NCBI GenBank assembly: GCA_934167755.1
Contig: CAKPLT010000001.1
Location: forward strand, 161,753-225,752
Direction of reading: 5' to 3'
Source of the DNA: an uncultured Clostridia bacterium
GTDB taxonomy: Bacteria > Bacillota > Clostridia > TANB77 > CAG-508
DNA: 64,000 nt
A program made the translations under genes and the position numbers. Below the pieces are notes generated by a model. That model saw nothing but the letters and a program-made list of their open reading frames with translations, was not told the origin of the DNA and did not search any database. Below are positions 6,622 to 39,314 of this stretch, piece after piece (the stretch's first letter is position 1; each line of letters starts with the position of its first letter).

Positions 6622-7533
6622 ATGGAAACTTATAAAGTAAAACCAGAAGAACAAGGAAAAAGATTAGACACTTATGTAACAAATCAAAATAATGAATTAA
6701 CAAGAACAGCAGTACAAAGGTTAGTTGAACAAGAAAAGATATTGGTCAATGGAAAAAAACAAAAAGTAGCATATAAGGTCACTGAAGGAGATATGATTAC
6801 AATTGAAGAAACAGAAGCTAAAACAATAAAATTAAAGGCGCAGGAAATACCTATAGACATTATATATGAAGACAAAGATATAGTTGTTGTAAATAAACCT
6901 AAAGGAATGGTTGTACACCCTGCTAATGGAAATATAGATGGAACATTAGTAAATGCAATAATGGCAATCTGTAAAGACAGTTTATCAGGAATAGGTGGAG
7001 AAATAAGACCTGGAATAGTACATAGATTAGATAAAGATACATCAGGATTATTAATTGTGGCCAAAAATGACAAAGCACATGTAAATATGAGTGAACAGAT
7101 AAAAAATCATGAAGTTAAAAAAACATATATTGCTTTAGTTAGAGGGATTGTTAAGGAAAATGAGGCAACTATAGATATGCCAATTGGAAGAAGTCGTTCA
7201 GATAGAAAAAAGATGGCTGTAGACAGAAATGGAAGGAATGCAGTAACACATATTAAAGTATTAAAAAGATATGACAAATATACATTATTAGAAGTAAATA
7301 TAGAAACTGGCAGAACACATCAAATTCGTGTACACTTATCACATATAGGATATCCTATAATTGGTGATTGTACATATTCAAATGGCAAAAATGAATTTGG
7401 AGTTGTAGGACAATGCTTACATGCTAAATGTTTAGAATTTAAACATCCTGTAACAGGAAAAGAAATTAAATTAGAGGCTCCTTTACCAGACTATTTTGAA
7501 AATATATTAAAAAAACTGGATGAAAGAGTATAG
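6622..7533 (+). CDS. rluD: 23S rRNA pseudouridine synthase, RluA/RluD family (S4 domain + PseudoU_synth_2)
   Basis: HRLDKDTSGLLIVAKND catalytic Asp motif. Start chosen at METYKV with a GGAGG RBS; the longer ORF-track start at 6541 would translate the repeated leader motif. Confidence 0.88.
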   Translation: METYKVKPEEQGKRLDTYVTNQNNELTRTAVQRLVEQEKILVNGKKQKVAYKVTEGDMITIEETEAKTIKLKAQEIPIDIIYEDKDIVVVNKPKGMVVHPANGNIDGTLVNAIMAICKDSLSGIGGEIRPGIVHRLDKDTSGLLIVAKNDKAHVNMSEQIKNHEVKKTYIALVRGIVKENEATIDMPIGRSRSDRKKMAVDRNGRNAVTHIKVLKRYDKYTLLEVNIETGRTHQIRVHLSHIGYPIIGDCTYSNGKNEFGVVGQCLHAKCLEFKHPVTGKEIKLEAPLPDYFENILKKLDERV

Positions 7534-25701: not shown

Positions 25702-25777
25702 TGGTTGCGGGAGTAGGACTCGAACCTACGACCTTTGGGTTATGAGCCCAACGAGCTGCCAACTGCTCCATCCCGCG
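25702..25777 (-). tRNA. Initiator tRNA-fMet (anticodon CAT)
   Basis: Reverse complement cgcgggatggagcagttggcagctcgttgggctcataacccaaaggtcgtaggttcgagtcctactcccgcaacca has the C1xA72 mismatch and three G-C pairs in the anticodon stem, the initiator hallmarks. Confidence 0.88.
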
Positions 25778-26076
25778 ATGTAACAATTATTATTATAAGA
25801 CTAAACAATAATTTTGTCAATAGATTTCAATAAATTCATAAAAATTATATATATTTTATTGTATATTATATTCAGTTGTAAAAAATTTATTACATAATTT
25901 TAATAGTATTATCATTGATTTTATTAAAAATCCATGATATAATATTTACATAATTTTGTAAATATTATGGAGTAACATTTTTTCCATAATAGTAACAAAT
26001 GTCTATAAAAAGGAGAGTGATACCACAAGTAAATTTGTAACAATTAAAAAACAAAACAAAAAGGAGGACTACAATA

Positions 26077-27210
26077 GTGTTACAGTTTCAAACAAAATCT
26101 ATTGACATCTGCCGGATTAGTAAAATACTTGTAAAATATAATATTAAGTCTAGTATAACTGATTCGGTAATTACTTTAGAGGGCGATATTTCTGATGATT
26201 TGCTTATGAAACTTTGTGATGCCATTAACATCAATAGTGTTCAAAACTTCATAAGTCAAGAACCATTATTTGATCTTAATGAAACATCATTTTTTAAAAA
26301 TGAAAAAAATACTCAAACTGAAGTTAGGGAAAAACCTACTTTATCACATAATACTTCCGAATATGATTTAATATATTCTAAAGTTAAGCGTGGTGAAGTA
26401 TATTTATGTGATTATGGAAAACCTTATGGTTGTGAACAAGGACTTGAGAGATATGCTATTATTGTACAAAATGATGAGGGGAATTTATATTCTCCGACAA
26501 CCATTGTAATTGCTTGTACTTCAAGAACCAAAAAAAGCCTTCCTGTTCATGTAGAGAGCAGATTTTCTTCTAGCAATATGGTTGATTATGACTTGAAAAG
26601 AGTAGGAACTGCTAAAAGTGTAATTATGGCAGAGCAAATTCGAACAATTGACAAAAGTAGACTTCGCAAATATATGGGAATGTTGACAGAAGAGTTTATG
26701 GAAGAAATTGATGAAAAGCTTAACATTTCATTACAGTTAAGTCAAAAAGTAAAAATCATAGAAAAAAAGGTGTATGTTGAAAACACACCCAAAGTTATGG
26801 TTGCTCCTAATGAACCAAAAGTACGAAAAGATGTGAATAAGGTTCAAATTCAGTTATTGTCATTTGTTGATATAAATGAACTTTTGAAAATTTCACAAAA
26901 GCATGTTACAGATGAAGTTAAAGCTGAGAAAATTTTAGAATTATTCGGTTTTGATTTTAATAAAAAAGGCGTTTCATATGTACTTAAAGCAATTATTACT
27001 TCTCCCAAAGATGCTTACTTTAACCTTGAAACCTTATCAGAGAGTATTTCTAAAGAAGAAGGCATTGATAAAGAAGAAGTAAAGCGCTTAATCGTTGCAA
27101 GAATAAAAGAAACTTTTGGATTTAGAAAAGCTCCAACAGTGGATTTTATTCGTTTAGTTAATAGTTTTTTGTTAAAACAGGAGGATGACAATGAAGAAAT
27201 TAACTTTTAA
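26077..27210 (+). CDS. 377-aa protein with an internal PemK/MazF-like (Kid toxin fold) domain flanked by N- and C-terminal extensions. GTG start with AAGGAGG RBS
   Basis: RGEVYLCDYGKPYGCEQGLERYAIIVQND...TTIVIACTS...IMAEQIRTIDKSRLRKYMGMLTEEFMEEIDEKL aligns by eye with the Kid/MazF core (RGEIW...GHEQQGTRPVLIV...PVTS...CDQPRTID...L..V). Confidence 0.6.
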   Translation: MLQFQTKSIDICRISKILVKYNIKSSITDSVITLEGDISDDLLMKLCDAININSVQNFISQEPLFDLNETSFFKNEKNTQTEVREKPTLSHNTSEYDLIYSKVKRGEVYLCDYGKPYGCEQGLERYAIIVQNDEGNLYSPTTIVIACTSRTKKSLPVHVESRFSSSNMVDYDLKRVGTAKSVIMAEQIRTIDKSRLRKYMGMLTEEFMEEIDEKLNISLQLSQKVKIIEKKVYVENTPKVMVAPNEPKVRKDVNKVQIQLLSFVDINELLKISQKHVTDEVKAEKILELFGFDFNKKGVSYVLKAIITSPKDAYFNLETLSESISKEEGIDKEEVKRLIVARIKETFGFRKAPTVDFIRLVNSFLLKQEDDNEEINF

Positions 27211-28507
27211 AGTAAGTTCACAAAAAGAAGGATCATTAATTTCATTAATAAAAGAGGTTGATAAAATATCTTGTCGAATTTCTTTTGATTTTGAAAACGG
27301 TATCGTAGCAGTTAAAAATGTCAATGATATTATGATTGATTCAGTTATAGAATTAGTCGATAATTATTACACTATTCTTGGTGTTGATATTGATAACACA
27401 CTTGAAGAAAACACAGAAAACACGACAACAGCTGTTTCATCAGAATCTTCTTCTGATGTATCTAATAATACAGTAGAAACAGATGAAACTGTAAATGAGA
27501 TCAAGCCAACAGTTTTAGAACCTCAAACAGAAGATGATTTAATCATCAAAAAGGTTGAATTCCAGAACGAATATCTTGAAGGATTAATCAATAAACTTGT
27601 AAAAACTATATCTTGGGCAATGTTCAAAATGAATATTTCTGAAAAAGAAGCTGGTGATTACATTTATACTACTATAAATGAGATTTCTATGAGATACAAT
27701 AAAAAAGAATGTATCGATTTTGCAATCGGAGATATTGTTGACTGTACCTATGGTGTTCATTTACCAGGAGAAATCAATGGTGGGCATGTTTCTGCAATAG
27801 TATGCGATATTTCTCACAATTCTATGGCATATTTAGTACCTATTACAAAGATACAGACAGACATTGTATCTAATTCTTATTTAATTTTCAAAGCTCCAGA
27901 AGATGTAGTTTATGAAAATGATTATTACAAAGGTGGTACTGCTTTATTAGATAAGGCAAAATATGTTCGTGCTGAAAGATTCAATGCAGTAATTGGTAAA
28001 ACAACTCCTGCTTTCTTTGAGAAAATTCTAAGAAAGTTGGCAAATACCTTTGACTTTACAAAAAAATTTGCAGAAAGAGTTGAAGAAGAAAGTGAAAAAA
28101 CTGTAATTACAACCCAAAATACTGAAGAAGTAGTTACAGAATCTTCTAAAAAGTATAATAATGTTGAAAATGCTTTGTTGGAAGTTATTGGATTTGCTTT
28201 CGACAAACTTGACCCTTCCAAAAAGGTTGAAGACCAGGTAGAAAGCTTTTTAGAGGATATTGGTATGGTATCTAACAAAATGATTACACAGTCCTTTATT
28301 ATTGCTTGTGATATAAAAAAAATCAAGTATGACAATGTTGCTCTTAGGTTGCATGAAGAGTTTTCAGAAGTAGATGAGGAAACTATCAAAAATACCTTAA
28401 AAGAAACATTTAAAAATTGGTTAGAAAAGTATCCTATTTTAGCAGAAAAATGCCCTAAAATTTCTATTATATATATGCTTAAATTATTTGCTAAGAAATT
28501 TGCATAA
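27191..28507 (+). CDS. 438-aa paralogue: N-terminal domain, acidic linker, PemK/MazF-like domain, and a C-terminal domain shared with the preceding protein. Overlaps the upstream gene by 20 nt
   Basis: GDIVDCTYGVHLPGEINGGHVSAIVCD...LVPITK...RAERFNAVIGKTTPAFFEKILRKL is MazF-like. C-terminal EVIGFAFDKLD parallels ELFGFDFNKKG of the upstream protein. Confidence 0.5.
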   Translation: MKKLTFKVSSQKEGSLISLIKEVDKISCRISFDFENGIVAVKNVNDIMIDSVIELVDNYYTILGVDIDNTLEENTENTTTAVSSESSSDVSNNTVETDETVNEIKPTVLEPQTEDDLIIKKVEFQNEYLEGLINKLVKTISWAMFKMNISEKEAGDYIYTTINEISMRYNKKECIDFAIGDIVDCTYGVHLPGEINGGHVSAIVCDISHNSMAYLVPITKIQTDIVSNSYLIFKAPEDVVYENDYYKGGTALLDKAKYVRAERFNAVIGKTTPAFFEKILRKLANTFDFTKKFAERVEEESEKTVITTQNTEEVVTESSKKYNNVENALLEVIGFAFDKLDPSKKVEDQVESFLEDIGMVSNKMITQSFIIACDIKKIKYDNVALRLHEEFSEVDEETIKNTLKETFKNWLEKYPILAEKCPKISIIYMLKLFAKKFA

Positions 28508-28529
28508 CTGCTGATTTGACTTTGACTAG

Positions 28530-28580
28530 GCGAGAGAATTTTCTCTAGCCTAGTTTTCTTTATATTTTTTAAAATTTTGA
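28530..28580 (+). terminator. Long hairpin (ctaggcgagagaa/ttctctagcctag) plus T-run after the PemK-like pair
   Basis: Inverted repeat with one mismatch, followed by ttttctttatatttttt. Confidence 0.55.
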
Positions 28581-28670
28581 AGAAATCTCAAAAAAACAAG
28601 TAAAGTATTGATATTCTGAGAAAAATTAGATATAATAACCATTAATAAATATATATAAAAGGTGAAATAT

Positions 28671-30140
28671 ATGAACGATGAATGCAAAAGAAAATGTCAA
28701 ATATTTACTCCAAAGGAAAATGTCATACAATTATTAGACTGGGTAGGATATAAAAAAGATTTATATGGAAAAAAAATAATTGAAAATTCATGTGGAGATG
28801 GACAAATATTAACTGAGATAGTAAATAGATATATTAAAGAATGCAAAAAAAATAATATAAATTCAAAACAAATAAAAAAAGGGTTAGAAAATGATATATA
28901 TGGTGCAGAAATAGATGCTGTTCATTATAGAAAATGTATCAACAATCTAGATGATATAGCGAAAAAAAATGATATTAATGATGTAAGGTGGAATATTATA
29001 CAAAAAGACATATTACAAGAAAAATTAGAAATTAAATTTGATTATGTAGTAGGAAATCCACCATATATAAAATATAAATTGTTAGATAAGGAAACTAGAG
29101 AATTTGTAAGGAAAAATTTCGAAGTATGTTCAATAGGAAAATTTGATTATTGCTATGCATTTATTGAACATGGAATAAAGAACTTAAATGAAAATGGAAA
29201 AATGGCGTATTTAATACCTAATAGCATATTTAAAAATGTTTTTGCACAACAATTAAGAAACTATATAAAAGCCAATTTAACAGATATATATGACTATACG
29301 ACAGAAAAATTGTTTACAAAGAAAAACCTTGAAAGCATAGAAAAAGATATACTTACATCTTCAGCAGTTATTATAATAGATAAAAGTAAAAAAACAAGAA
29401 ATATTAAATATCATGATATTGTAAATAAACAAGAAATAAAAATTTCGAAGAATAATTTAAATGGTAAGTGGATATTTAATAAAAATGGTGAAGAAGAGCA
29501 ACAAAATAGAACTGCAAAATTTGGGGATTATTTTAAAGCTTCAAATACAATTGCAACATTATATAATAAAGCATTTGTTATAAATCATTACCAAGATGAA
29601 GAAGAATATATAGTAACAGAAGACAATTATAAAATAGAAAAAGCAATATTAAAAGAAGCAGTCAGTCCAAGAAGTTTAAACAGTAATACAGCGGAAAAAA
29701 TTATATTTCCATATTATTTTAAGAATGGAGAATTAAAAAAATACACAGAAGAAGAAATCAAAACAAAATTTCCAAATGCATATAAATATCTAGAAATACA
29801 TAAAGAAAAATTATTAAAAAGAAAATCAGATACTAGTGCAAAATGGTATGAATATGGGAGAAGTCAGGCTATTAGTCAATCAAATGAAAAAAAACTATTA
29901 TTATCAACAGTAATAACAAAAGAAGTAAAAGTATATGATTTGTCAAATGAAACAATACCATATTCAGGAATATACATTACAAGTGAAGAAGAAAATCTTG
30001 ATAGAGCTAAAGAAATATTGGAAAGTGAAGAGTTTTTACAATATGTAAAAAACATAGGAATAAATGCTAGTGGAGAATCCATTAGAATAACAAGTAAAGA
30101 TATTAATAATTTTGAATTTTATATTGGAGAAAATATATGA
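28671..30140 (+). CDS. N6-adenine DNA methyltransferase, gamma class (M.TaqI/Eco57I-like; FxGxG before NPPY, C-terminal TRD)
   Basis: Motif I IENSCGDGQIL and motif IV VVGNPPY. Start chosen at MNDECKRK with an AAGGTG RBS. The stop overlaps the next start (ATGA). Confidence 0.82.
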   Translation: MNDECKRKCQIFTPKENVIQLLDWVGYKKDLYGKKIIENSCGDGQILTEIVNRYIKECKKNNINSKQIKKGLENDIYGAEIDAVHYRKCINNLDDIAKKNDINDVRWNIIQKDILQEKLEIKFDYVVGNPPYIKYKLLDKETREFVRKNFEVCSIGKFDYCYAFIEHGIKNLNENGKMAYLIPNSIFKNVFAQQLRNYIKANLTDIYDYTTEKLFTKKNLESIEKDILTSSAVIIIDKSKKTRNIKYHDIVNKQEIKISKNNLNGKWIFNKNGEEEQQNRTAKFGDYFKASNTIATLYNKAFVINHYQDEEEYIVTEDNYKIEKAILKEAVSPRSLNSNTAEKIIFPYYFKNGELKKYTEEEIKTKFPNAYKYLEIHKEKLLKRKSDTSAKWYEYGRSQAISQSNEKKLLLSTVITKEVKVYDLSNETIPYSGIYITSEEENLDRAKEILESEEFLQYVKNIGINASGESIRITSKDINNFEFYIGENI

Positions 30141-32392
30141 GCAAGAAAATAAGATTTAATGTAAATGCATATACTGCAAAATTAATAGGAAGAGAAAATG
30201 TTTCAAACTTAGAAGGTGCAATCCTTGAATTAGTAAAAAATACATATGATGCTGATGCTACAAAATGTATATTATATTATGACGAAGAAAATAAAACATT
30301 ATATATTATGGACAATGGTACAGGAATGTCAGAAGAAATTATTGAAAAACACTGGATGACAATAGGAAATTCTTCTAAAAGTACAAACTTTATTACCCAA
30401 AGTGGTAGAGTGCAAACAGGAGCAAAAGGGATAGGAAGATTTGCATTAGACAGAACTGGTGATACATGTGTGATGTACACAAAAACTCAAAAAAATGATG
30501 ACATAATACAATGGAAAGTTGATTGGAGAGATTTTGACAGAAAAGAAAACTTAACAGATATAACTGCAGAAATTGACTATGTTAAAGGAAAGTTATATGA
30601 CAATGTACAAGGAAATAAATATTTAAATGAAATTTTAAAAACACATTTTAGTGGTACTGGAACAATTTTTAAAATTACAAATTTAAGAGAAGAATGGAAT
30701 ATTGACTTAATAAAAAATATAAAGAAAAGCTTAGCAACACTTATTCCACCAGATATAGAAAACGAATTTGCTATATATTTTTTCTATGAAGATCAAAGTG
30801 AAAAAGAGGCATTAATCATATCAGATAATATAGATGCATATGATTATAAAATTGAATTCAATGTATTAGATGATGGAAAAACAATTATAAAATTAGATAG
30901 AAACGAATTTGACTTTAAAGACAAATTAGATGAAATAATTCAAAAAGCAGGATTTAAAGAGGAAGACAAAGATTATTTTTTAGGAAAAGAAAAAATTATA
31001 AATACTACATTAGAAGCATTGATAGGAAATAAAGATGCAGAAGAATTAGGAAAATTTGATGGAACTATATATTTTAATAAAATTACAGTAACAAAAGAAG
31101 ATGCGAAGAAATACTATTATAAAGACATAACAGGAAGAAAAAACTTTTCTGATATATTTGGTGGAATAAAATTATATAGAGACAATTTTAGAGTAAGACC
31201 ATATGGAGAAAAAGAATCATCTAGTTATGACTGGTTACTTTTAGGAAATAGACATGCAAAATCACCTGCTGCTATAAGCCATCCAACAGGAAAGTGGAGA
31301 GTTTCAACAGACCAAGTATCAGGTGTAATAAATATATCAAGAATGAATGTGAACTTACCAGATCAGGCAAATAGACAAGGAATAGTAGAAACAAAAGAGT
31401 TCAGACTATTAAAAGAAATACTTATAGATATTATTTCCGAATTTGAGGAAGATAGGCAATATGTTGGTAGGAAATTAAACAAATTATATTATGAAGAAAA
31501 TGAAACACAACAAACTCAAGAAGAAGTAAGAAAAAAGGCAAAGAAGCAACAAAAAGATAAAGAAAAAAATAGTGATAATGATGATTATAAAGTAGACGCA
31601 GAAAAAGTACATAAAGTTTTTGAGGAAAAAGATGAACAAATAAGAGACTTACAAGACGAAAACAGAATGTTGAGAAATTTGGCTACAACAGGAATAGTAG
31701 TAAATCAATATATACATGAAACAAAAGAATCAGTTAATAATGTGGGAACGAATATTATGGTAGTGAAAGAATTATTAATTGAAGATAGAGACATAGAAAA
31801 AGCAATAGAGAAAATAACAGATGCACAAAAATATGTTGAAACAATGAATTCTTGGTATGATGTTACATTAGGTTCAATAAGAAGAGATAAGAGAACAATG
31901 AAATATAATGATATTAATTCATTAATATCAACACAGATGAATTTATGGAAAAAAGTATTAGAAAGACAAAATATTGATATAATATATACAGGAAGAGATA
32001 TTCCAGAAATAAAATGTTTCCCATATGAAATAGAAAGTATAATTAGTAATTTAATAGCTAATAGTGTATATGCATTTAAAGGGATAAAAGACAAAAAAAT
32101 ATATATTAATTTATTGGAAACAGATCATGGTATAAAAATCGAATACCATGATACAGGATCTGGGCTAATATCGGAATATAAAAAACAGCCAGAGAAGATA
32201 TTAGAAGCATTAGAAACAAGTAAAAAAAATCGTATAGGTGAAACTGTAGGAACTGGAATGGGAATGTGGATAATATCTGGAATTGTTAATAATTATAATG
32301 GAGATATAGACTTAAGCAAAAACTTAAAAGAAGAGACAGGATTCTATATAGACATTAATTTGAAAGCATTGAAAAGAAATGAAGGTGAATAA
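30137..32392 (+). CDS. Two-module ATPase: N-terminal MORC/MutL-like GHKL ATPase, and C-terminal histidine-kinase core (candidate H-box + HATPase_c)
   Basis: N-terminal ELVKNTYDADAT (N box), DNGTGMS (G1), GAKGIGRFA (G2). C-terminal NQYIHETKES (candidate H-box), IISNLIANSVYAF (N box), YHDTGSGLI (G1), GTGMGMWII (G2). Confidence 0.65.
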   Translation: MSKKIRFNVNAYTAKLIGRENVSNLEGAILELVKNTYDADATKCILYYDEENKTLYIMDNGTGMSEEIIEKHWMTIGNSSKSTNFITQSGRVQTGAKGIGRFALDRTGDTCVMYTKTQKNDDIIQWKVDWRDFDRKENLTDITAEIDYVKGKLYDNVQGNKYLNEILKTHFSGTGTIFKITNLREEWNIDLIKNIKKSLATLIPPDIENEFAIYFFYEDQSEKEALIISDNIDAYDYKIEFNVLDDGKTIIKLDRNEFDFKDKLDEIIQKAGFKEEDKDYFLGKEKIINTTLEALIGNKDAEELGKFDGTIYFNKITVTKEDAKKYYYKDITGRKNFSDIFGGIKLYRDNFRVRPYGEKESSSYDWLLLGNRHAKSPAAISHPTGKWRVSTDQVSGVINISRMNVNLPDQANRQGIVETKEFRLLKEILIDIISEFEEDRQYVGRKLNKLYYEENETQQTQEEVRKKAKKQQKDKEKNSDNDDYKVDAEKVHKVFEEKDEQIRDLQDENRMLRNLATTGIVVNQYIHETKESVNNVGTNIMVVKELLIEDRDIEKAIEKITDAQKYVETMNSWYDVTLGSIRRDKRTMKYNDINSLISTQMNLWKKVLERQNIDIIYTGRDIPEIKCFPYEIESIISNLIANSVYAFKGIKDKKIYINLLETDHGIKIEYHDTGSGLISEYKKQPEKILEALETSKKNRIGETVGTGMGMWIISGIVNNYNGDIDLSKNLKEETGFYIDINLKALKRNEGE

Positions 32393-33004
32393 ATGTATAA
32401 AATAGCATTAATAGATGATTGTAAGGACCAATATGAAAACTATAAATACAGGTTAGGAAAAAAAGGAATAGATTTGTTATTTATGGAATATAAAGAAGAT
32501 TATACAGAAATAATTGATTGGTTATTAGATAATCAAATACAATTTGTATTAATAGATTATAAGCTAGACTTACAATATGATTTTTGTGGTTCACAATTAA
32601 TGCAATATATTAATAATGCAATACCGGATTTACAATGTGTATTATTTACATCTAATACAGTTGATGATGATCTAGTAATGGACAGATTAAAAATAGATAA
32701 AAGTGTATTTAATACAGACGGAAAAGAATATGTGGAATTTATAGATACCATAAAACAAGCTGTAAATGTATTTGAAAAAAGAAAGAAAATGATGGAAGAA
32801 CATTATTTAAAGCTTAAAGAAAAAAAGGATAGTGGAAAAATTTCTGCTTTAGAAGAGGAAGAATTAGCAAGATATTATAAAATATTAAGTACTTATGGAA
32901 TTGTAGAAAAAATACCACAAGAAATGTTATCAACAAAGGTAGAAGAAAAAATCGATAAATTGATAAAAGAAGTAGAAGAATATTTAATAAATAAAAGAGG
33001 ATAG
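32393..33004 (+). CDS. Stand-alone receiver (REC/CheY-like) domain protein with a C-terminal coiled-coil tail
   Basis: KIALIDDC (acidic pocket), FVLIDYKLD (phospho-acceptor Asp position), CVLFTSNT (T/S), then K; starts 1 nt after the upstream stop. Confidence 0.5.
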   Translation: MYKIALIDDCKDQYENYKYRLGKKGIDLLFMEYKEDYTEIIDWLLDNQIQFVLIDYKLDLQYDFCGSQLMQYINNAIPDLQCVLFTSNTVDDDLVMDRLKIDKSVFNTDGKEYVEFIDTIKQAVNVFEKRKKMMEEHYLKLKEKKDSGKISALEEEELARYYKILSTYGIVEKIPQEMLSTKVEEKIDKLIKEVEEYLINKRG

Positions 33005-33005
33005 A

Positions 33006-33590
33006 ATGGAAAGAATACACGGAATAAAAACGATAAAAAGGAGAAAATATACAATAAGGAGAGACTATACTGAATGTAAAGATATTCTTGCAGAGGATTT
33101 TCAACAGATGTGTGGATATTGTGGAAAACATCGAAAAACATTACTTAAACAATTTCAAATAGATCACTTTGCACCACAAAGTAAATTCCCAGAAAAGAGA
33201 GACATATATAAAAATTTAGTATTAGCTTGCCCTCAATGTAATAGATTAAAATCAGACAAATGGATTGGTAATAATCCAGAAGTAAGCAATGATGGAAAAA
33301 GGGGATTTGTAGATCCTGCAACAGAAGAATATGATCAACACCTATATAGAGAAGATGATGGAAAAATTATGTATAAAACTGAAGTCGGAAAATATATGTA
33401 TGATTTACTTAAATTTAACATTAGAAGAACTGATTTAATTTGGAAAATTATTAAATTGAGTGAATTGAAAGAAGAATTGAAGAGCTTTTTGAGAGATAAT
33501 CCGGACGAAGAAGGGAATAGAAAATTTGTAGAAATACAGATGCAATTAGATGAACTACTAGACTATATTACATATAATGAAAGAGAATAA
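33006..33590 (+). CDS. HNH endonuclease
   Basis: CGYCGK...QIDHFAPQS...NLVLACPQCNRLKSDK HNH/Zn-finger motif; begins 1 nt after the REC gene. Confidence 0.78.
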   Translation: MERIHGIKTIKRRKYTIRRDYTECKDILAEDFQQMCGYCGKHRKTLLKQFQIDHFAPQSKFPEKRDIYKNLVLACPQCNRLKSDKWIGNNPEVSNDGKRGFVDPATEEYDQHLYREDDGKIMYKTEVGKYMYDLLKFNIRRTDLIWKIIKLSELKEELKSFLRDNPDEEGNRKFVEIQMQLDELLDYITYNERE

Positions 33591-33797: not shown

Positions 33798-34016
33798 GTA
33801 TACCAATAATTTGATACTAGACTCGGAAAATATAATAAAATGAAGCATTTGCTAGATTTTGGCAGGTGCTTTTTTCTTGCTTTTTCAAGTGAAAATGTCA
33901 CACTTTGGTCACAGTTAGGGCGAGAAAAGACTGAGTTAGACAAGTTTTAACAAGGAATGTATTTGAATTATTCACAGGAAGTGGTATAATTGGGGTAAAT
34001 GAAAGGAGAGATTTAT

Positions 34017-34490
34017 ATGGATATAACAATTGATGTAGATAATTATAAGTTAAATGTAAGAGCAGCAGGAGTAATGATACATAATGGCAAAATTTTGGTT
34101 CATAGAAATATTAATTCTGACCACTATGCATTAATTGGAGGAAGAGTAGAAATAGGAGAAAATTCAGCTGATACAATTAAAAGAGAAATTAAAGAAGAAT
34201 TAGGAAAAAACATAGAAATAACAGGATATATATCAACAATAGAAAACTTTTTTGAGATGAAAGGTTCAAAATACCATGAAATAATGTTTGTACATAAAAT
34301 AGAATTTACAAATGAAGATGATAAAAAAATAGAATATACAATGAAAAATATTGAAGGAAAAGATTATTTGCAATATGAATGGATAGAGATAAATAAAATT
34401 GATGAGTATCCACTATTGCCAAGAGATGTAAAAGAAGTTTTAAAAGAAAATAAATTTCCAATACATAAAATAAATAATGATTTGAAATAA
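34017..34490 (+). CDS. NUDIX hydrolase
   Basis: NUDIX box GGRVEIGENSADTIKREIKEELG. Start chosen at MDITID with an AAAGGAGAG RBS. Confidence 0.85.
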   Translation: MDITIDVDNYKLNVRAAGVMIHNGKILVHRNINSDHYALIGGRVEIGENSADTIKREIKEELGKNIEITGYISTIENFFEMKGSKYHEIMFVHKIEFTNEDDKKIEYTMKNIEGKDYLQYEWIEINKIDEYPLLPRDVKEVLKENKFPIHKINNDLK

Positions 34491-34502
34491 AACAGGTGAA
34501 AT

Positions 34503-34886
34503 ATGAAAGTATTAACAATAAAACAACCTTGGGCAACATTAATAATGCAAGGAGATAAAAGATTTGAATTTAGAAGTTGGAAAACTAAATATAGAGGAGA
34601 TTTATTAATACATGCAGGAAAAGGAATAGATAAAGAAGCAATGAAAAGATTAGCAAAATATATTACAAAAGATATGCCAACTGGAAAAATATTAGGAAAA
34701 GTAACATTAGTAGATTGCATAAAATGTGATGATAATTTTAAAGAAATGTGCTTAAAAGAAAATAAAGATGTCTATGCTAAAAGTACTTTTGTAGAAAAAT
34801 ATGCATGGCAGCTGGAGAATGTAGAAGTATTTGATGAACCGTTAGAGGCAAAAGGAAAATTGAGTTTGTGGGAGTATGATATATGA
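34503..34886 (+). CDS. ASCH domain protein
   Basis: MKVLTIKQPWATLIMQGDKRFEFRSW...LLIHAG is the canonical ASCH N-terminus. Confidence 0.8.
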   Translation: MKVLTIKQPWATLIMQGDKRFEFRSWKTKYRGDLLIHAGKGIDKEAMKRLAKYITKDMPTGKILGKVTLVDCIKCDDNFKEMCLKENKDVYAKSTFVEKYAWQLENVEVFDEPLEAKGKLSLWEYDI

Positions 34887-35461
34887 AAAATATAGAAAGA
34901 TATTATAAAAATACAACAGATGCAAAACCTAATTATACTATAAAAAAATTTATTGAATTGAAAATCAAACCAGGAAATGCAATTGAACTTGGATGTGGAG
35001 CAGGAAGAGATACGGTATGTTTAATAAAAAATGGATGGAATGTAATGGCAATAGATAAAGAAAATGTTGAATCAAGAATTGTAGCAAAATTAGAAGCAAA
35101 AGAATTAAAACAGTTTAAATTTTTAAAGCGAAAATTTGAGGAGATTGAATTAGAAAATAATAATTTGGTAGTTGCTAATTTTAGTCTTCCATTCTGCAAT
35201 AAAAATGATTTTAAAAAATTATGGAATAAAATAGATGATAGTATTTTAAAAGATGGATATTTTGTTGGTAATTTCTTTGGAGATAACGATGAATGGAAAA
35301 ATACAAAAGAAGAAATGATGTTCTTAACAAAAGAACAGGTAATAGAATTATTTGAAAATTTTGAAATTATAGAGTTTAATGAAGTAGAAAAAGATGATTT
35401 TACCGGTTTAGGGAAAATGAAACATTGGCATATATTTAATGTAATAGCAAAGAAAATTTAG
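34883..35461 (+). CDS. Class I SAM-dependent methyltransferase (TehB-like)
   Basis: ELGCGAGRDTVCLIKNGWNVMAIDK SAM-binding motif I. Confidence 0.72.
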   Translation: MKNIERYYKNTTDAKPNYTIKKFIELKIKPGNAIELGCGAGRDTVCLIKNGWNVMAIDKENVESRIVAKLEAKELKQFKFLKRKFEEIELENNNLVVANFSLPFCNKNDFKKLWNKIDDSILKDGYFVGNFFGDNDEWKNTKEEMMFLTKEQVIELFENFEIIEFNEVEKDDFTGLGKMKHWHIFNVIAKKI

Positions 35462-35487
35462 AATTATTATAATTTAAGGAGATTAGT

Positions 35488-35898
35488 ATGGTAAAAGAAA
35501 TAGTAAAAGATGTAATGTTTTTATCACAAAAAGCCGAAAAAGCAACAGAGAAAGATAAATATATAGCAAATGACTTACTAGATACATTAAAGGCTAATAG
35601 GGATAGATGTGTAGGACTTGCCGCAAATATGATAGGATACAACAAAGCAATAATTTGTGTATCAGGTGGATTGTATGATTTTGTAATGATAAATCCTGTT
35701 ATTACGAATAGAAGCGGAGAGTATGAAACAGAAGAAGGTTGTTTGTCTTTAATTGGAGAAAGAAAATGTAAAAGATATAAAGAAATTGAGGTTGATTATT
35801 TGGATATAAATTTTAATAAACAACATGGAAAATATACAGAATTTGTTGCCGAGATAATACAACATGAGATTGACCATACAAATGGGATAATAATATAA
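35488..35898 (+). CDS. def: Peptide deformylase (short form)
   Basis: GLAANMIG, EGCLS and HEIDH, the three PDF motifs. Confidence 0.85.
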   Translation: MVKEIVKDVMFLSQKAEKATEKDKYIANDLLDTLKANRDRCVGLAANMIGYNKAIICVSGGLYDFVMINPVITNRSGEYETEEGCLSLIGERKCKRYKEIEVDYLDINFNKQHGKYTEFVAEIIQHEIDHTNGIII

Positions 35899-36104
35899 TT
35901 ATAGAAATAGTAATTACTTAAGTAGTTACTATTTTTTTTATGTGATAATCGGTATAAATTTAAGAAAAATATTGAAATATAAATAAAAAACATATACCGG
36001 AAAATATAAAAACACCCCCGCCTTTAATCTCTACGAGATAAAAAGGGGGAACGGCGAGGGGAGTCATGTAAAAACTTTCGGGAAATAGGAAGGGGAGGGG
36101 GTAA

Positions 36105-36377
36105 TTATTTCTTCGAAAGAGCTTCTAATAGTAACGATACAGCTAATGCAAAACCTTCAATAAAGGCCTCTTCAGATTCAATATCAGATAATTCATTCAT
36201 ACAATCTAATACATTATCAATTAGAGAAAAAGTTTCTTTATCAACCAAATGTGTCAGTTCTTCTTGAAGTAATGTACATTTTGATAGTGTTTTAGAATAT
36301 TTGGAATTTTCAAGTATTGGTTTCTCAATACAAGTGTAATCTCCATTGTATAGAGATTTAATTGTTTTATTGTTCAT
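36105..36377 (-). CDS. Small hypothetical protein (90 aa), divergent from hsdR
   Basis: ORF with a GGAGGTG RBS and no motif. Confidence 0.4.
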   Translation of the reverse strand: MNNKTIKSLYNGDYTCIEKPILENSKYSKTLSKCTLLQEELTHLVDKETFSLIDNVLDCMNELSDIESEEAFIEGFALAVSLLLEALSKK

Positions 36378-36560
36378 ATCTTCACCTCCAGTTGGTTGTG
36401 TATTTAAACTTAAAAATGATTAAATATCAAGTAATATTTAAAATTAAATATAGTAAAAAGTATTTACAAAATATACCAAAATCAGACACATTATATTGTT
36501 ATTTTTATTACTTTGTGATATAAATATATTGAGAAAGTATATAAGTTTGGGGGCTAATAT

Positions 36561-39314
36561 ATGTCTAAAGAATATGAAAGCGAGGCAATGCTTGAAGAAA
36601 AATTAATAAAACACTTAGAATTATTAGGTTATACTAGGATTAATCTAAAAAATCTAGATGATGTAAAAGAAAATTTTAGAAAACAAGTAAACAAGCATAA
36701 TATAGATGAATTAAAAGGAAAAGAACTATCAGATAGAGAATTTGATAGACTATATACAATGATTACTGGAAAAGGTGTTTATGCCAGTAGCAAAATTTTA
36801 AGAGAAAAACAATGTTTAGAAAGAGATAATGGAGAAAAAATATATATAGAATTATTTAATACCAGACAATGGTGTAAAAACATATACCAAGTTTCCAACC
36901 AAATAACCAGTATTACAGGAGAAAGAGAAACAAGATATGATGTAACACTTTTTATTAACGGATTACCACTAATTCAAATAGAATTAAAAGCACGTGGAAA
37001 AACATTAAAAGAAGCAGTAAATCAAATTGAAAGATATAGAAGGACTTCATATAAAGAATTATATAAATTTATTCAGATTTATGTTGTAAGTAATGGAGTA
37101 AATACAAAATACTTTGCAAATACAGATGGAGAAATAAACTTTGGATATACATTCTTTTGGACAGATGAAGAAAACAACAGAATTAGTAATCTAAGTGAAT
37201 TTTCAATGTATTTCTTAGAAAAATGTTTTGTATCTAAAATGATTGCTAGATATATGGTTATTAATGAAACAGACAAACAATTAATGGTAATGAGACCATA
37301 TCAAGTATATGCAGTAGAAGCACTAGTAAATCAGGCTAAAGAAACTAGTAATAATGGATATATATGGCATACTACAGGTTCAGGAAAAACATTAACATCC
37401 TTCAAAGCAAGTCAAATTTTAGCAAATGAACCAGATATTAAACAAGTCTTTTTCTTAGTAGATAGAAAAGATTTAGATACGCAGACATTCGATGAATTCA
37501 ATAAATTTGAGCCAGGTTCAGTAGACTTTACAAATAGTACATATAAATTAGTTAAAAATATACAAGATTCAACAAAGCCATTAATCATAACTACTATTCA
37601 AAAAATGGCTAATGCTATAAATAGTCCAAGATATTCAGAATTAATGGAAAAATACAGAGATGAAAAGGTTGTGTTTATTATAGATGAATGTCATAGAAGC
37701 CAATTTGGTGATATGCATAAAGCTATAAAAATGCATTTTAATAGAGCTCAATATTTTGGATTTACAGGTACACCAAGATTTCCGGAAAATAAAAGTCAAG
37801 ATGGGAGAACAACAGCAGATATATTTGAAAAATGTTTACACAAATATTTATTAAAAGATGCAATAAATGATGGAAATGTATTAGGATTTTCAGTTGATTA
37901 TTATAAAACAATAGATGCTAATTTAGATAATATAGATTATGTTGAAGTTGAAGGTATAAACACTGAAGAAGCTTATATGGCTGATGAAAGAATAAACAAC
38001 ATTACTGAAGGAATACTTACAATGCATCCATTAAAAACTAATGATATGACATATACTGCTATATTTGCAACTGCTAGTATACCACAATTAGTAAAATATT
38101 ATGATTGTTTTAAAACTAAAAAAACAGATTTGAAAATAGCAGCAATATTTACATATGGACCAAATGAAGATTATGAAGGAAAAGATGAACTTTCATGTCA
38201 AAGTTTAGAAAGAATTATAAATGATTACAATAAAATGTTTGATACCAACTATTCAGTAAATGCATTCGATGGATATTTTAAAGATGTTTCTAAAAGAGTA
38301 AAGAATGCAGAAATAGATATTTTAATTGTAGTAAATATGTTTTTAACTGGATTTGATAGCAAAAAATTAAATACATTGTATGTGGATAAAGCTTTAAAAT
38401 ATCATGATTTAATACAAGCTTTTTCAAGAACAAATAGAGTAGAAAAAGCAACAAAAACGCAAGGAAATATAGTAAGTTTTAGAACAACGAAAAAAGCTGT
38501 AGATAATGCTATAAGGATTTTTTCTGATACAAGTGATCCAGATGAAGTTTTATTAAAACCATATGAATATTATAAAGAAAAATTTATTGAAATAGCAAAA
38601 AAATTAAAAGAAACTGCTCCGACAGTAGAATTTGTCGATGCAATACAATCAGAAGAAGAAAAGAAAAAATTTATTGTTATATTTAGAGAGTTAACTAAAA
38701 TATTAATAAAACTTAGAATATTTAGAGAATTTAAATTTACAGAAGAAGAAGTTTATATTTCACATCAGGAATATTTAGATTATAAGAGTAAGTATTTAGA
38801 TTTAGCTACAGGTAAAGAATCACAAAATAAGGTTAGTATATTAAATGATATTGATTTTGAATTAGAATTAATGTACACAGATAAAATAAATGTAGACTAT
38901 ATTTTAAATTTAATGAGATCAATCGATTTAACTGATAAAGAGCAGACAGATAAAGATATTAAGGACATTTTAAATAAATTGGAAAATGCAGATAATAAGG
39001 ACTTAAGGCTAAAATCTGATTTGATTAGAGAATTCTTAAATAAAATTATTCCAACTCTTAATGAAAATGATTCAGTTGAAGAAAATTATTATAACTTTAT
39101 GGATGAACGCCGACACAAAGAAATTGAAGATATTGCCAAGAAATATGATATTGATATAAATCTATTAAATGATATCATAGGGGAATATGAATATTCTGGA
39201 ATCTTAGATACAGGTAAAATAAAAGAAAAAATAGATAAGCCTTTGATAGAAAAAGTTAATATAACAAAGTCAATTAAAGAATTTATAGTAAATTTAATAA
39301 ATAGATTCAAATAG
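36561..39314 (+). CDS. hsdR: Type I restriction enzyme R subunit
   Basis: N-terminal PD-(D/E)xK nuclease (RYDVTLFINGLPLIQIELK); helicase motifs HTTGSGKT, IIDECHRSQ, FTGTP. Confidence 0.9.
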   Translation: MSKEYESEAMLEEKLIKHLELLGYTRINLKNLDDVKENFRKQVNKHNIDELKGKELSDREFDRLYTMITGKGVYASSKILREKQCLERDNGEKIYIELFNTRQWCKNIYQVSNQITSITGERETRYDVTLFINGLPLIQIELKARGKTLKEAVNQIERYRRTSYKELYKFIQIYVVSNGVNTKYFANTDGEINFGYTFFWTDEENNRISNLSEFSMYFLEKCFVSKMIARYMVINETDKQLMVMRPYQVYAVEALVNQAKETSNNGYIWHTTGSGKTLTSFKASQILANEPDIKQVFFLVDRKDLDTQTFDEFNKFEPGSVDFTNSTYKLVKNIQDSTKPLIITTIQKMANAINSPRYSELMEKYRDEKVVFIIDECHRSQFGDMHKAIKMHFNRAQYFGFTGTPRFPENKSQDGRTTADIFEKCLHKYLLKDAINDGNVLGFSVDYYKTIDANLDNIDYVEVEGINTEEAYMADERINNITEGILTMHPLKTNDMTYTAIFATASIPQLVKYYDCFKTKKTDLKIAAIFTYGPNEDYEGKDELSCQSLERIINDYNKMFDTNYSVNAFDGYFKDVSKRVKNAEIDILIVVNMFLTGFDSKKLNTLYVDKALKYHDLIQAFSRTNRVEKATKTQGNIVSFRTTKKAVDNAIRIFSDTSDPDEVLLKPYEYYKEKFIEIAKKLKETAPTVEFVDAIQSEEEKKKFIVIFRELTKILIKLRIFREFKFTEEEVYISHQEYLDYKSKYLDLATGKESQNKVSILNDIDFELELMYTDKINVDYILNLMRSIDLTDKEQTDKDIKDILNKLENADNKDLRLKSDLIREFLNKIIPTLNENDSVEENYYNFMDERRHKEIEDIAKKYDIDINLLNDIIGEYEYSGILDTGKIKEKIDKPLIEKVNITKSIKEFIVNLINRFK

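Follow-up and report, generated by a model that had tools for sequence, protein, structure and literature searches.

An EndoA/MazF-type endoribonuclease gene coupled to an acidic, degenerate paralogue in uncultured gut Clostridia: a candidate autoregulated module without a small antitoxin gene

Toxins of the MazF family usually measure about 110 amino acids and are held by a small, labile antitoxin of the MazE type, which also represses the operon; what, then, would perform those two tasks at a locus where the MazF fold is embedded in large proteins and no gene for a small antitoxin is present? That locus lies within a 64-kb stretch of DNA (the whole of which, 64,000 nucleotides, we call the window) from contig CAKPLT010000001.1 of an uncultured Clostridia bacterium, and it comprises two consecutive genes, p1 and p2, that a first-pass annotation had described as overlapping paralogues and had interpreted as either single-chain toxin–antitoxin fusions or abortive-infection effectors. 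To the reading that we favour we assign a probability of roughly 0.45: namely, that this is a MazF module of novel layout, fixed in the chromosome and controlling its own expression, whose fused DNA-binding domains would, together with the acidic pseudo-toxin p2, replace MazE. On our best reading, in which the steps beyond fold, residues, and conservation are those that we infer, the pair represents a form of the toxin–antitoxin module that had not been described. Two elements go beyond what that annotation had noted: the Spo0A_C-like DNA-binding C domains, and a conserved promoter and leader.

The first gene encodes a protein of three folded domains, the parts of which are the following:

26077 to 27210, plus strand: gene p1, 377 amino acids, with an N domain, a linker, a MazF RNase domain, a basic linker, and a Spo0A_C-like domain.
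26077 to 26250, plus strand: p1 N domain (residues 1–58), with a ferredoxin/HMA-like beta-alpha-beta-beta-alpha-beta fold.
26374 to 26742, plus strand: p1 endoribonuclease domain of the MazF/EndoA type (residues 100–222), containing R125 and T148.
26836 to 27180, plus strand: p1 C domain (residues 254–368), basic, of seven helices, with a Spo0A_C-like helix-turn-helix.

The start codon of p1 is a GTG, preceded at a spacing of 9 nucleotides by a GGAGG at 26063–26067. Residues 104–219 span the PemK_toxin model of Pfam (PF02452) from end to end (E=1.5e-25), and the alignment of this core with the MazF of Staphylococcus aureus and the EndoA of Bacillus subtilis (E of about 1e-21) is ungapped over the first half, where R125 and T148 coincide with Arg25 and Thr48 in the B. 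subtilis numbering; the EQIRT strand is likewise retained. Mutation of these two residues abolishes the activity of Bacillus MazFs (PMC7354611), and among 54 cluster representatives of p1 the catalytic arginine is retained in 43 and the threonine, or a serine, in 53. The best reading of this sequence is that p1 is a sequence-specific endoribonuclease of the EndoA/MazF type with an apparently intact active site, which protein nevertheless, by virtue of its size and its three folded domains, is unlike the single-domain toxins of MazEF.

The second gene encodes a longer protein, whose parts run in parallel to those of p1:

27191 to 28507, plus strand: gene p2, 438 amino acids, the acidic paralogue, with the architecture of p1 plus a helical hairpin insert.
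27180 to 27184, plus strand: Shine-Dalgarno sequence of p2, GGAGG, located within the 3' end of p1 (translational coupling).
27194 to 27397, plus strand: p2 N domain, ferredoxin-like.
27518 to 27709, plus strand: p2 helical hairpin directly before the MazF-like barrel, conserved and absent in p1.
27710 to 28057, plus strand: p2 MazF-like barrel, in which the position of the arginine is taken by the invariant His201 or Val202, depending on the register, and Thr221 is retained.
28160 to 28504, plus strand: p2 C domain, of seven helices, Spo0A_C-like and slightly acidic (net charge −3, isoelectric point (pI) 5.3).

Although the list of open reading frames places the start of p2 at the ATG at 27185, we place it at the ATG at 27191 because of its 6-nucleotide spacer from the GGAGG, because the homologues begin with MKKLTF, and because the gene callers give the same 438 amino acids. 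With this start the genes overlap by 20 nucleotides, and the first-pass description of two consecutive reading frames of 377 and 438 amino acids with such an overlap was borne out, as was that of a MazF/PemK fold inside both proteins; the barrel of p2 has that fold, but without the catalytic arginine. The helices of the p2 hairpin occupy residues 129–148 and 153–171 in the model (in a 440-amino-acid numbering), and W144 is conserved in the family alignment.

The two proteins differ in charge. The p2 product has a net charge of −22 and is acidic in all its segments, most so in the disordered linkers, with a median across species of −21 and an extreme of −48; p1 as a whole is close to neutral, with a pI of 7.9 for its MazF domain, 9.8 for the linker that follows, and 8.8 for the C domain, the charge of which has a median across species of +3. 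In the MazEF systems the toxin is basic and the antitoxin acidic, to which pattern the asymmetry between p1 and p2 conforms. The loss of the catalytic arginine together with the strong acidity makes p2 resemble a partner or inhibitor of p1 and not a second toxin. The idea of two single-chain toxin–antitoxin fusions keeps a small probability, but the two proteins are not equivalent: p1 retains both the arginine and the threonine, and p2 does not retain the arginine.

To compare the architectures we used AlphaFold models of the single chains of p1 and p2, built on 38-sequence alignments. Each protein has three confident domains connected by disordered linkers; in p1 these are the N domain (1–57), the MazF domain (100–220), and the C domain (254–366), the last with a predicted local-distance score (pLDDT) of 85–90. 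The common architecture argues that p1 and p2 are paralogues, as had been noticed at first pass; for the N and C domains that paralogy rests on fold and architecture. Both C domains are modelled with a fold like that of Spo0A_C, the reference for which is a six-helix domain with a helix-turn-helix (PDB 1fc3), seven helices being predicted here; furthermore, in a search against a single Spo0A sequence the C-domain profile aligns with the helix-turn-helix without a shift in register (E=6e-5), which is no more than a lead. As judged from the models, the likeness to Spo0A_C is mainly structural. The N domains are ferredoxin-like folds of about 60 amino acids without a match to Response_reg, so that neither protein has a receiver domain, and despite the HMA-like fold the CxxC metal motif of the HMA type is absent from both. 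In p1 that domain carries two near-invariant cysteines, at residues 12 and 47 (26110–26112 and 26215–26217), of which Cys12 occupies the CxxC position of the HMA domains, but within a CxxS motif. A literature search retrieved no paper on a MazF–Spo0A_C architecture or on a MazF paralogue acting as a partner.

The two genes travel together. A collection of 5.8 billion proteins holds some 300 homologues of p1 and some 200 of p2; the top 120 p1 homologues are 56–100% identical to it and, with a single exception, full-length (97% coverage of p1 or more). An exhaustive HMMER search of 1.84 billion proteins with the p1 C domain gave 86 clusters at 50% identity, nearly all the members of which have 320–490 amino acids and carry the domain C-terminally. 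The family is present in single copy in 31 metagenome-assembled genomes of uncultured Clostridia (GTDB species genomes) from the gut of humans, rabbits, goats, and sheep, with p2 directly after p1 in 30 of the 31. As the first-pass annotation had stated, there is no small antitoxin gene: no reading frame of the MazE/PemI type occurs upstream of, between, or downstream from the pair in the window, and none is conserved in the 31 species; nor, upon clustering of all their flanking reading frames, is any other neighbouring gene conserved beside the pair. In addition, natural fusions exist: P0250 is a read-through fusion of p1 into p2; P0292, found in two independent samples (L039, 3123–4358; and L040), is a single chain with the order MazF–C1–C2, in which both the arginine and the threonine are intact and whose leader has the same architecture as that of the pair; and P0298 is a C1–C2 chain without MazF. 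Such fusions, of the Rosetta-stone kind, suggest a joint action of the two gene products.

The DNA that surrounds the two coding regions supplies the remaining evidence:

25889 to 25902, plus strand: second copy of the conserved box, ATTACATAATTTTA, some 56 bp ahead of the main one.
25915 to 25943, plus strand: predicted p1–p2 promoter, with a −35 TTGATT, a 17-nucleotide spacer, and an extended −10, TGATATAAT (10 of 12 matches, TG present).
25945 to 25962, strand-neutral: operator-like box TTTACATAATTTTGTAAA, an inverted repeat TTTACA-N6-TGTAAA beginning 2 nucleotides past the −10.
25955 to 25999, plus strand: hairpin in the leader, close to the predicted transcript start, with an inner stem at 25963–25972/25982–25991.
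25994 to 26006, plus strand: leader block AACAAATGTCTAT, nearly invariant across species.
26009 to 26040, plus strand: AAAGGAG resembling a Shine-Dalgarno sequence, then a mini-reading frame of 7 codons (GTG at 26017 to TAA at 26040).
28524 to 28570, plus strand: intrinsic terminator 3' of p2, with a 13-bp stem and a U-rich tract (−18.5 kcal/mol, z −3.8).

By these signals, p1–p2 is a separate transcription unit with a promoter and a terminator of its own. The 150 nucleotides 5' of p1 are unusually conserved for noncoding DNA, even where the proteins are about 50% identical; the leader measures some 125 nucleotides, and promoter plus leader (25915–26076) are conserved in the corresponding region of L005–L039, with a TGnTATAAT element conserved in an 18-species alignment. 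The box TTTACATAATTTTG, which begins 2 nucleotides after the −10, forms in the window part of the palindrome listed above. Of 27 species-level upstream regions, 24 contain TACATAA, against an average of 1.3 after shuffling; the motif begins 12 nucleotides past the TG of the extended −10 in the majority of species, and in the divergent clades L024, L026/27, L033, and L036 (and, by eye, L030) it begins 12–14 nucleotides before that TG, inside the spacer. Many species have a second TACATAA/TTATGTA copy, in either orientation, 40–60 bp upstream. Because the motif keeps its sequence while switching sides of the −10, it is most simply a DNA operator and not an RNA site; we considered whether it was a site of self-cleavage of the UACAU type by the MazF domain, and rejected that possibility in view of its position upstream of the −10 in several clades and of a depletion of UACAU in the p1–p2 coding sequence that was only mild (42 observed against 59 expected, in 21 species). 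The conserved TACATAA box next to the −10 suggests a candidate operator, and this box in conjunction with the fused helix-turn-helix domains suggests that p1/p2 regulate their own transcription.

The leader RNA has features of its own. Pairing holds in 86.7% of the cells of the hairpin, compared with 72% after shuffling, and none of 500 shuffles attains so high a value; compensatory changes appear in 9 of 10 pairs; slid controls give 43–62%; and G-U pairs outnumber A-C mismatches by 13 to 4, which excess suggests an RNA structure. The block AACAAATGTCTAT has a single mismatch-free occurrence in the window. The AAAGGAG is kept in all clades, and the mini-reading frame, which is the sole one upstream of p1, varies from 1 to about 19 codons, which variability makes a peptide unlikely as the conserved feature; an A-rich stretch and then the true Shine-Dalgarno sequence separate it from p1. 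No credible Rfam match was found for the leader, and no notable tandem repeats, as sought for an RNA antitoxin of the type III style, were present at the locus. Extra copies of the box and of the ACAAATGTCTAT leader block were not above chance in the 64-kb window, within which a wider regulon was therefore rejected.

From these results we infer, for the favoured reading, a p1–p2 heterocomplex, inhibition of p1, binding of DNA at the box, a trigger, and a cleavage specificity. The two proteins would pair domain for domain, through the two-fold dimer interface of the MazF type and through the two C domains, and within this complex the RNA groove of p1 would be incomplete or blocked. The C domains of the complex would occupy the TTTACA-N6-TGTAAA palindrome at the −10 so as to repress the operon, whereby the two tasks of MazE, neutralisation and operator binding, would pass to p2 and the fused DNA-binding domains. 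The small ferredoxin-like N domain of p1 may act in sensing or in dimerisation; were p2 lost, or were the N domains to receive a signal, homodimers of p1 might then be released and cleave RNA, probably at UACAU-like sites. We lean towards this scheme because p2 is a MazF fold that lacks the arginine and has its net charge of −22 beside the basic C domain of p1; because the overlap, with the Shine-Dalgarno sequence of p2 inside p1, accompanies an adjacency kept in nearly all genomes; because of the natural fusions and the Spo0A-like C domains; and because the box beside the −10, so much more frequent than expected, is palindromic in the window and belongs to a unit with its own promoter and terminator.

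Several findings nevertheless weigh against it. By sequence, the similarity between the two N domains and between the two C domains is short and non-significant (hhalign, sub-alignments); a scan of 38 family members gave no Pfam Spo0A_C (PF08769) match at E up to 10, and a 54-sequence C-domain profile found no Spo0A match among the PDB sequences. The catalytic arginine is replaced in 11 of the 54 p1 representatives, which form a KECVIIIQ subgroup; in L032 and P0326 the MazF domain of p1 has been cleanly deleted in frame, leaving an N–C protein; and in L034 p1 is broken, with loss of the MazF domain. From this it follows that the RNase is dispensable for whatever maintains the pair. On the side of p2, the hairpin and the MazF-like part are missing in L020, L031, and L033, in the first of which p1 is seemingly competent; in a rabbit-gut genome (L011) p2 is a 64-amino-acid in-frame remnant (7034–7228) that retains just the first 10 or so and the last 30 or so residues, beside an intact p1 with its catalytic residues; and the P0292 fusion contains neither the pseudo-MazF nor the N domains. 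Since a seemingly competent p1 persists in L011, L020, and P0292, the pseudo-MazF cannot be an obligatory antidote. The C domain of p2 is missing in L017; C1 and C2 are, even so, the parts retained in nearly every locus, the RNase and its degenerate twin not being indispensable. Finally, the descent of the family looks vertical, in single copy and among housekeeping genes, unlike that of the typical mobile toxin–antitoxin loci. That setting is stable within sub-clades, the pair being found beside tyrS and znuABC, tadA-dnaX-ybaB, rpoB-rpoC, or thrS and ychF.

These losses, along with that setting, are the ground for the main rival to an autoregulated MazF module, which we consider doubtful though worth weighing: that the pair is no toxin–antitoxin system and is instead a lineage-specific heterodimeric transcription factor made of C1 and C2, with a housekeeping or developmental role, possibly in the control of sporulation, and with targets beyond its own promoter. 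The MazF folds would in that event be an accessory module for symmetric dimerisation, for RNA sensing, or for some effector function, and the N domains would be ligand sensors. The retention of C1/C2, sometimes as a fusion, against the independent loss of the MazF, pseudo-MazF, and N domains in several lineages agrees with such a factor, as do the stable synteny beside tyrS, dnaX-ybaB, and rpoBC, the vertical descent as a single-copy pair not found on mobile elements, the conserved promoter box, and the presence of sporulation genes (dpaA, GerM-like) near some loci. It accords poorly, however, with a C domain of p2 that is not basic, with a window in which neither the box nor the leader block recurs conspicuously, and, as regards a purely structural MazF, with the strong conservation of the p1 active site. 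A related possibility, which we find unlikely, would join the two views: a C1–C2 heterodimer would sit on promoter DNA, with the live MazF and its dead twin as the unit of dimerisation and effector action, the whole being the descendant of a domesticated toxin–antitoxin system and an unrecognised class of regulator. Promoter binding might there be coupled to the sequence-specific cleavage of RNA, for example of the nascent or leader RNA; a ligand at the ferredoxin-like domains may switch the protein between repressor and RNase states; and a developmental or stress programme of uncultured gut Clostridia might be under its control.

The persistence of p1 without an intact p2 bears also on a third explanation, the one closest to the original proposal, to which we concede a small probability: each protein would be a self-contained single-chain toxin–antitoxin fusion, whose N domain, acidic linker, or C domain covers the MazF groove in cis until it is released by a trigger (for instance, a small molecule or a phage protein), in the manner of the fused system CapRel(SJ46). 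The lack of a separate antitoxin gene would be expected under that model, and so would the catalytically intact p1 where p2 is degraded or truncated and in the fused chain P0292, as well as the acidic linkers that flank the MazF domain. Without the catalytic arginine, however, p2 is no second toxin; the pair is nearly always together and translationally coupled, and outside the species of the window its context is not that of a defence island. The single-chain models, with a predicted template-modelling score (pTM) of 0.36 and the domains on disordered linkers, are uninformative on cis contacts and so speak for neither side.

The flanks of the pair in the window contain a second set of genes, for which a joint function with p1 and p2 could be imagined:

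28608 to 28636: promoter of the downstream operon (28608–33590), TTGATA-17-TATAAT.
28662 to 30140: N6-adenine methyltransferase, Eco57I/type II-like, resembling the type II/IIG enzymes.
30137 to 32392: protein of 751 amino acids with two GHKL ATPase/histidine-kinase-like domains.
32393 to 33004: weakly receiver-like protein of 203 amino acids, its gene interrupted in L002.
33006 to 33590: PtuB-like HNH nuclease.

This operon looks like a methylation-linked defence system, and the view that the pair is its effector or sensor arm, all the genes together forming one anti-phage or abortive-infection system, seems to us very improbable. It is true that the two units adjoin not only in the window but also in four metagenome contigs of the same species, that the HNH protein resembles defence nucleases of the PtuB type and the methyltransferase resembles type II/IIG enzymes, and that MazF-like domains are known in the defence proteins CalpT and GajC. 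A terminator follows p2, however, and the operon has a promoter of its own; p1 and p2 gave no match in PADLOC and have no viral or plasmid relatives; and the operon is beside the pair in the window's own species alone (L001–L004), the some 30 others having rpoBC, tyrS, znuABC, tadA-dnaX-ybaB, or thrS there. The location that the first-pass annotation had given for the pair, upstream of a methyltransferase/kinase/HNH operon, is thus correct, whereas a functional link and a general co-occurrence are not sustained. Nor does the context lend support to an abortive-infection role, since relatives of the C domain were not found in IMG/VR or in phage or plasmid records, PADLOC was negative, and the descent looks vertical and in single copy; for the same lack of relatives in IMG/VR, plasmids, or phages, an origin of the pair from a mobile element was rejected. 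The surrounding DNA has about 26% G+C, with no compositional break.

Other neighbours deserve a brief record. On the far side of p1 the pair adjoins, as had been noted, a tRNA of the initiator type: a tRNA-Met(CAT) at 25702–25777 on the minus strand, divergent from p1, with a C1:A72 mismatch and a GGG:CCC anticodon stem, the features of an initiator. Its promoter, at 25792–25820, is a perfect TTGACA-17-TATAAT. An NCBIfam match of the receiver-like protein to "MadR" was dropped as a link to the MADS defence, MadR being an envelope-stress regulator of Enterococcus. At 33999–39314, 3' of the HNH gene, there follow NUDIX, ASCH, a TehB-like methyltransferase, and peptide deformylase, and then the type I restriction gene HsdR (36561–39314; Pfam annotation from the identical contigs L001/L002), so that a defence-rich stretch borders the pair in this species. 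In two others, sporulation-related genes lie within a few kilobases of the pair (L039, 7560–8358; L005, 7501–8067), coding for a DpaA-like dipicolinate synthase subunit and a GerM-like protein with a Germane domain, which neighbourhood suggests that the hosts are spore formers.

Returning to the favoured reading, the pair would owe its significance to a MazF RNase with an apparently intact active site that forms part of a three-domain protein with its own DNA-binding domain and that is partnered by a degenerate acidic copy in the place of MazE. If p2 in fact neutralises p1, nature would here offer a clear example of a pseudo-toxin in the part of the antitoxin, and the pair would illustrate how domestication can turn a toxin–antitoxin module into a regulator fixed in the chromosome. 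The family has few members, all from uncultured gut Clostridia; because it is annotated merely as "PemK", the standard finders of toxin–antitoxin and defence systems do not see it. The architecture and the Spo0A-like domains would be what surprises a specialist. The fold of the DNA-binding domain of Spo0A is not known from proteins other than Spo0A, and the locus would, if the models are right, extend it to a second protein family.

Among the known systems, Spo0A itself differs from the pair in the receiver domain, which p1 and p2 lack, and in its 0A box TGTCGAA, where the half-sites of the box are TGTAAA. CalpT, of the type III CRISPR CalpL–CalpT–CalpS system, is likewise a larger regulatory protein with a MazF fold inside it and acts on transcription; in CalpT, however, the MazF-like part accompanies a DUF2080 anti-sigma domain and is linked to a SAVED-Lon protease and a sigma factor of the extracytoplasmic-function type, none of which occurs in the neighbourhood of the pair, whose partner domains bear no relation to those of CalpT. 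In type II Gabija, GajC contains a split MazF-like fold with a helical insertion and has no MazE partner, to which arrangement the hairpin beside the barrel of p2 is similar; yet GajC acts with the helicase GajB in a defence operon, whereas the pair has neither a helicase partner nor a conserved defence context. CapRel(SJ46) and EzeT are fused single-chain toxin–antitoxin proteins, with the toxin and the regulatory domains in one polypeptide and no separate small antitoxin gene, though their toxin families differ from that of p1, and the pair nearly always has a second, paralogous gene. The nearest relatives of the catalytic domain of p1 are in MazEF and EndoA–EndoAI (mazEF of S. aureus, ydcDE of B. 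subtilis), with which p1 shares the PemK/MazF (PF02452) fold and the catalytic arginine and threonine, p2 being devoid of that arginine. From these systems the pair departs in two defining features, the small adjacent antitoxin and the single-domain toxin: the toxin domain of p1 is one of three in a protein equipped with a helix-turn-helix of its own, and the partner gene, located downstream, encodes no protein of the AbrB or ribbon-helix-helix type but a degenerate paralogue of the toxin, 438 amino acids in length.

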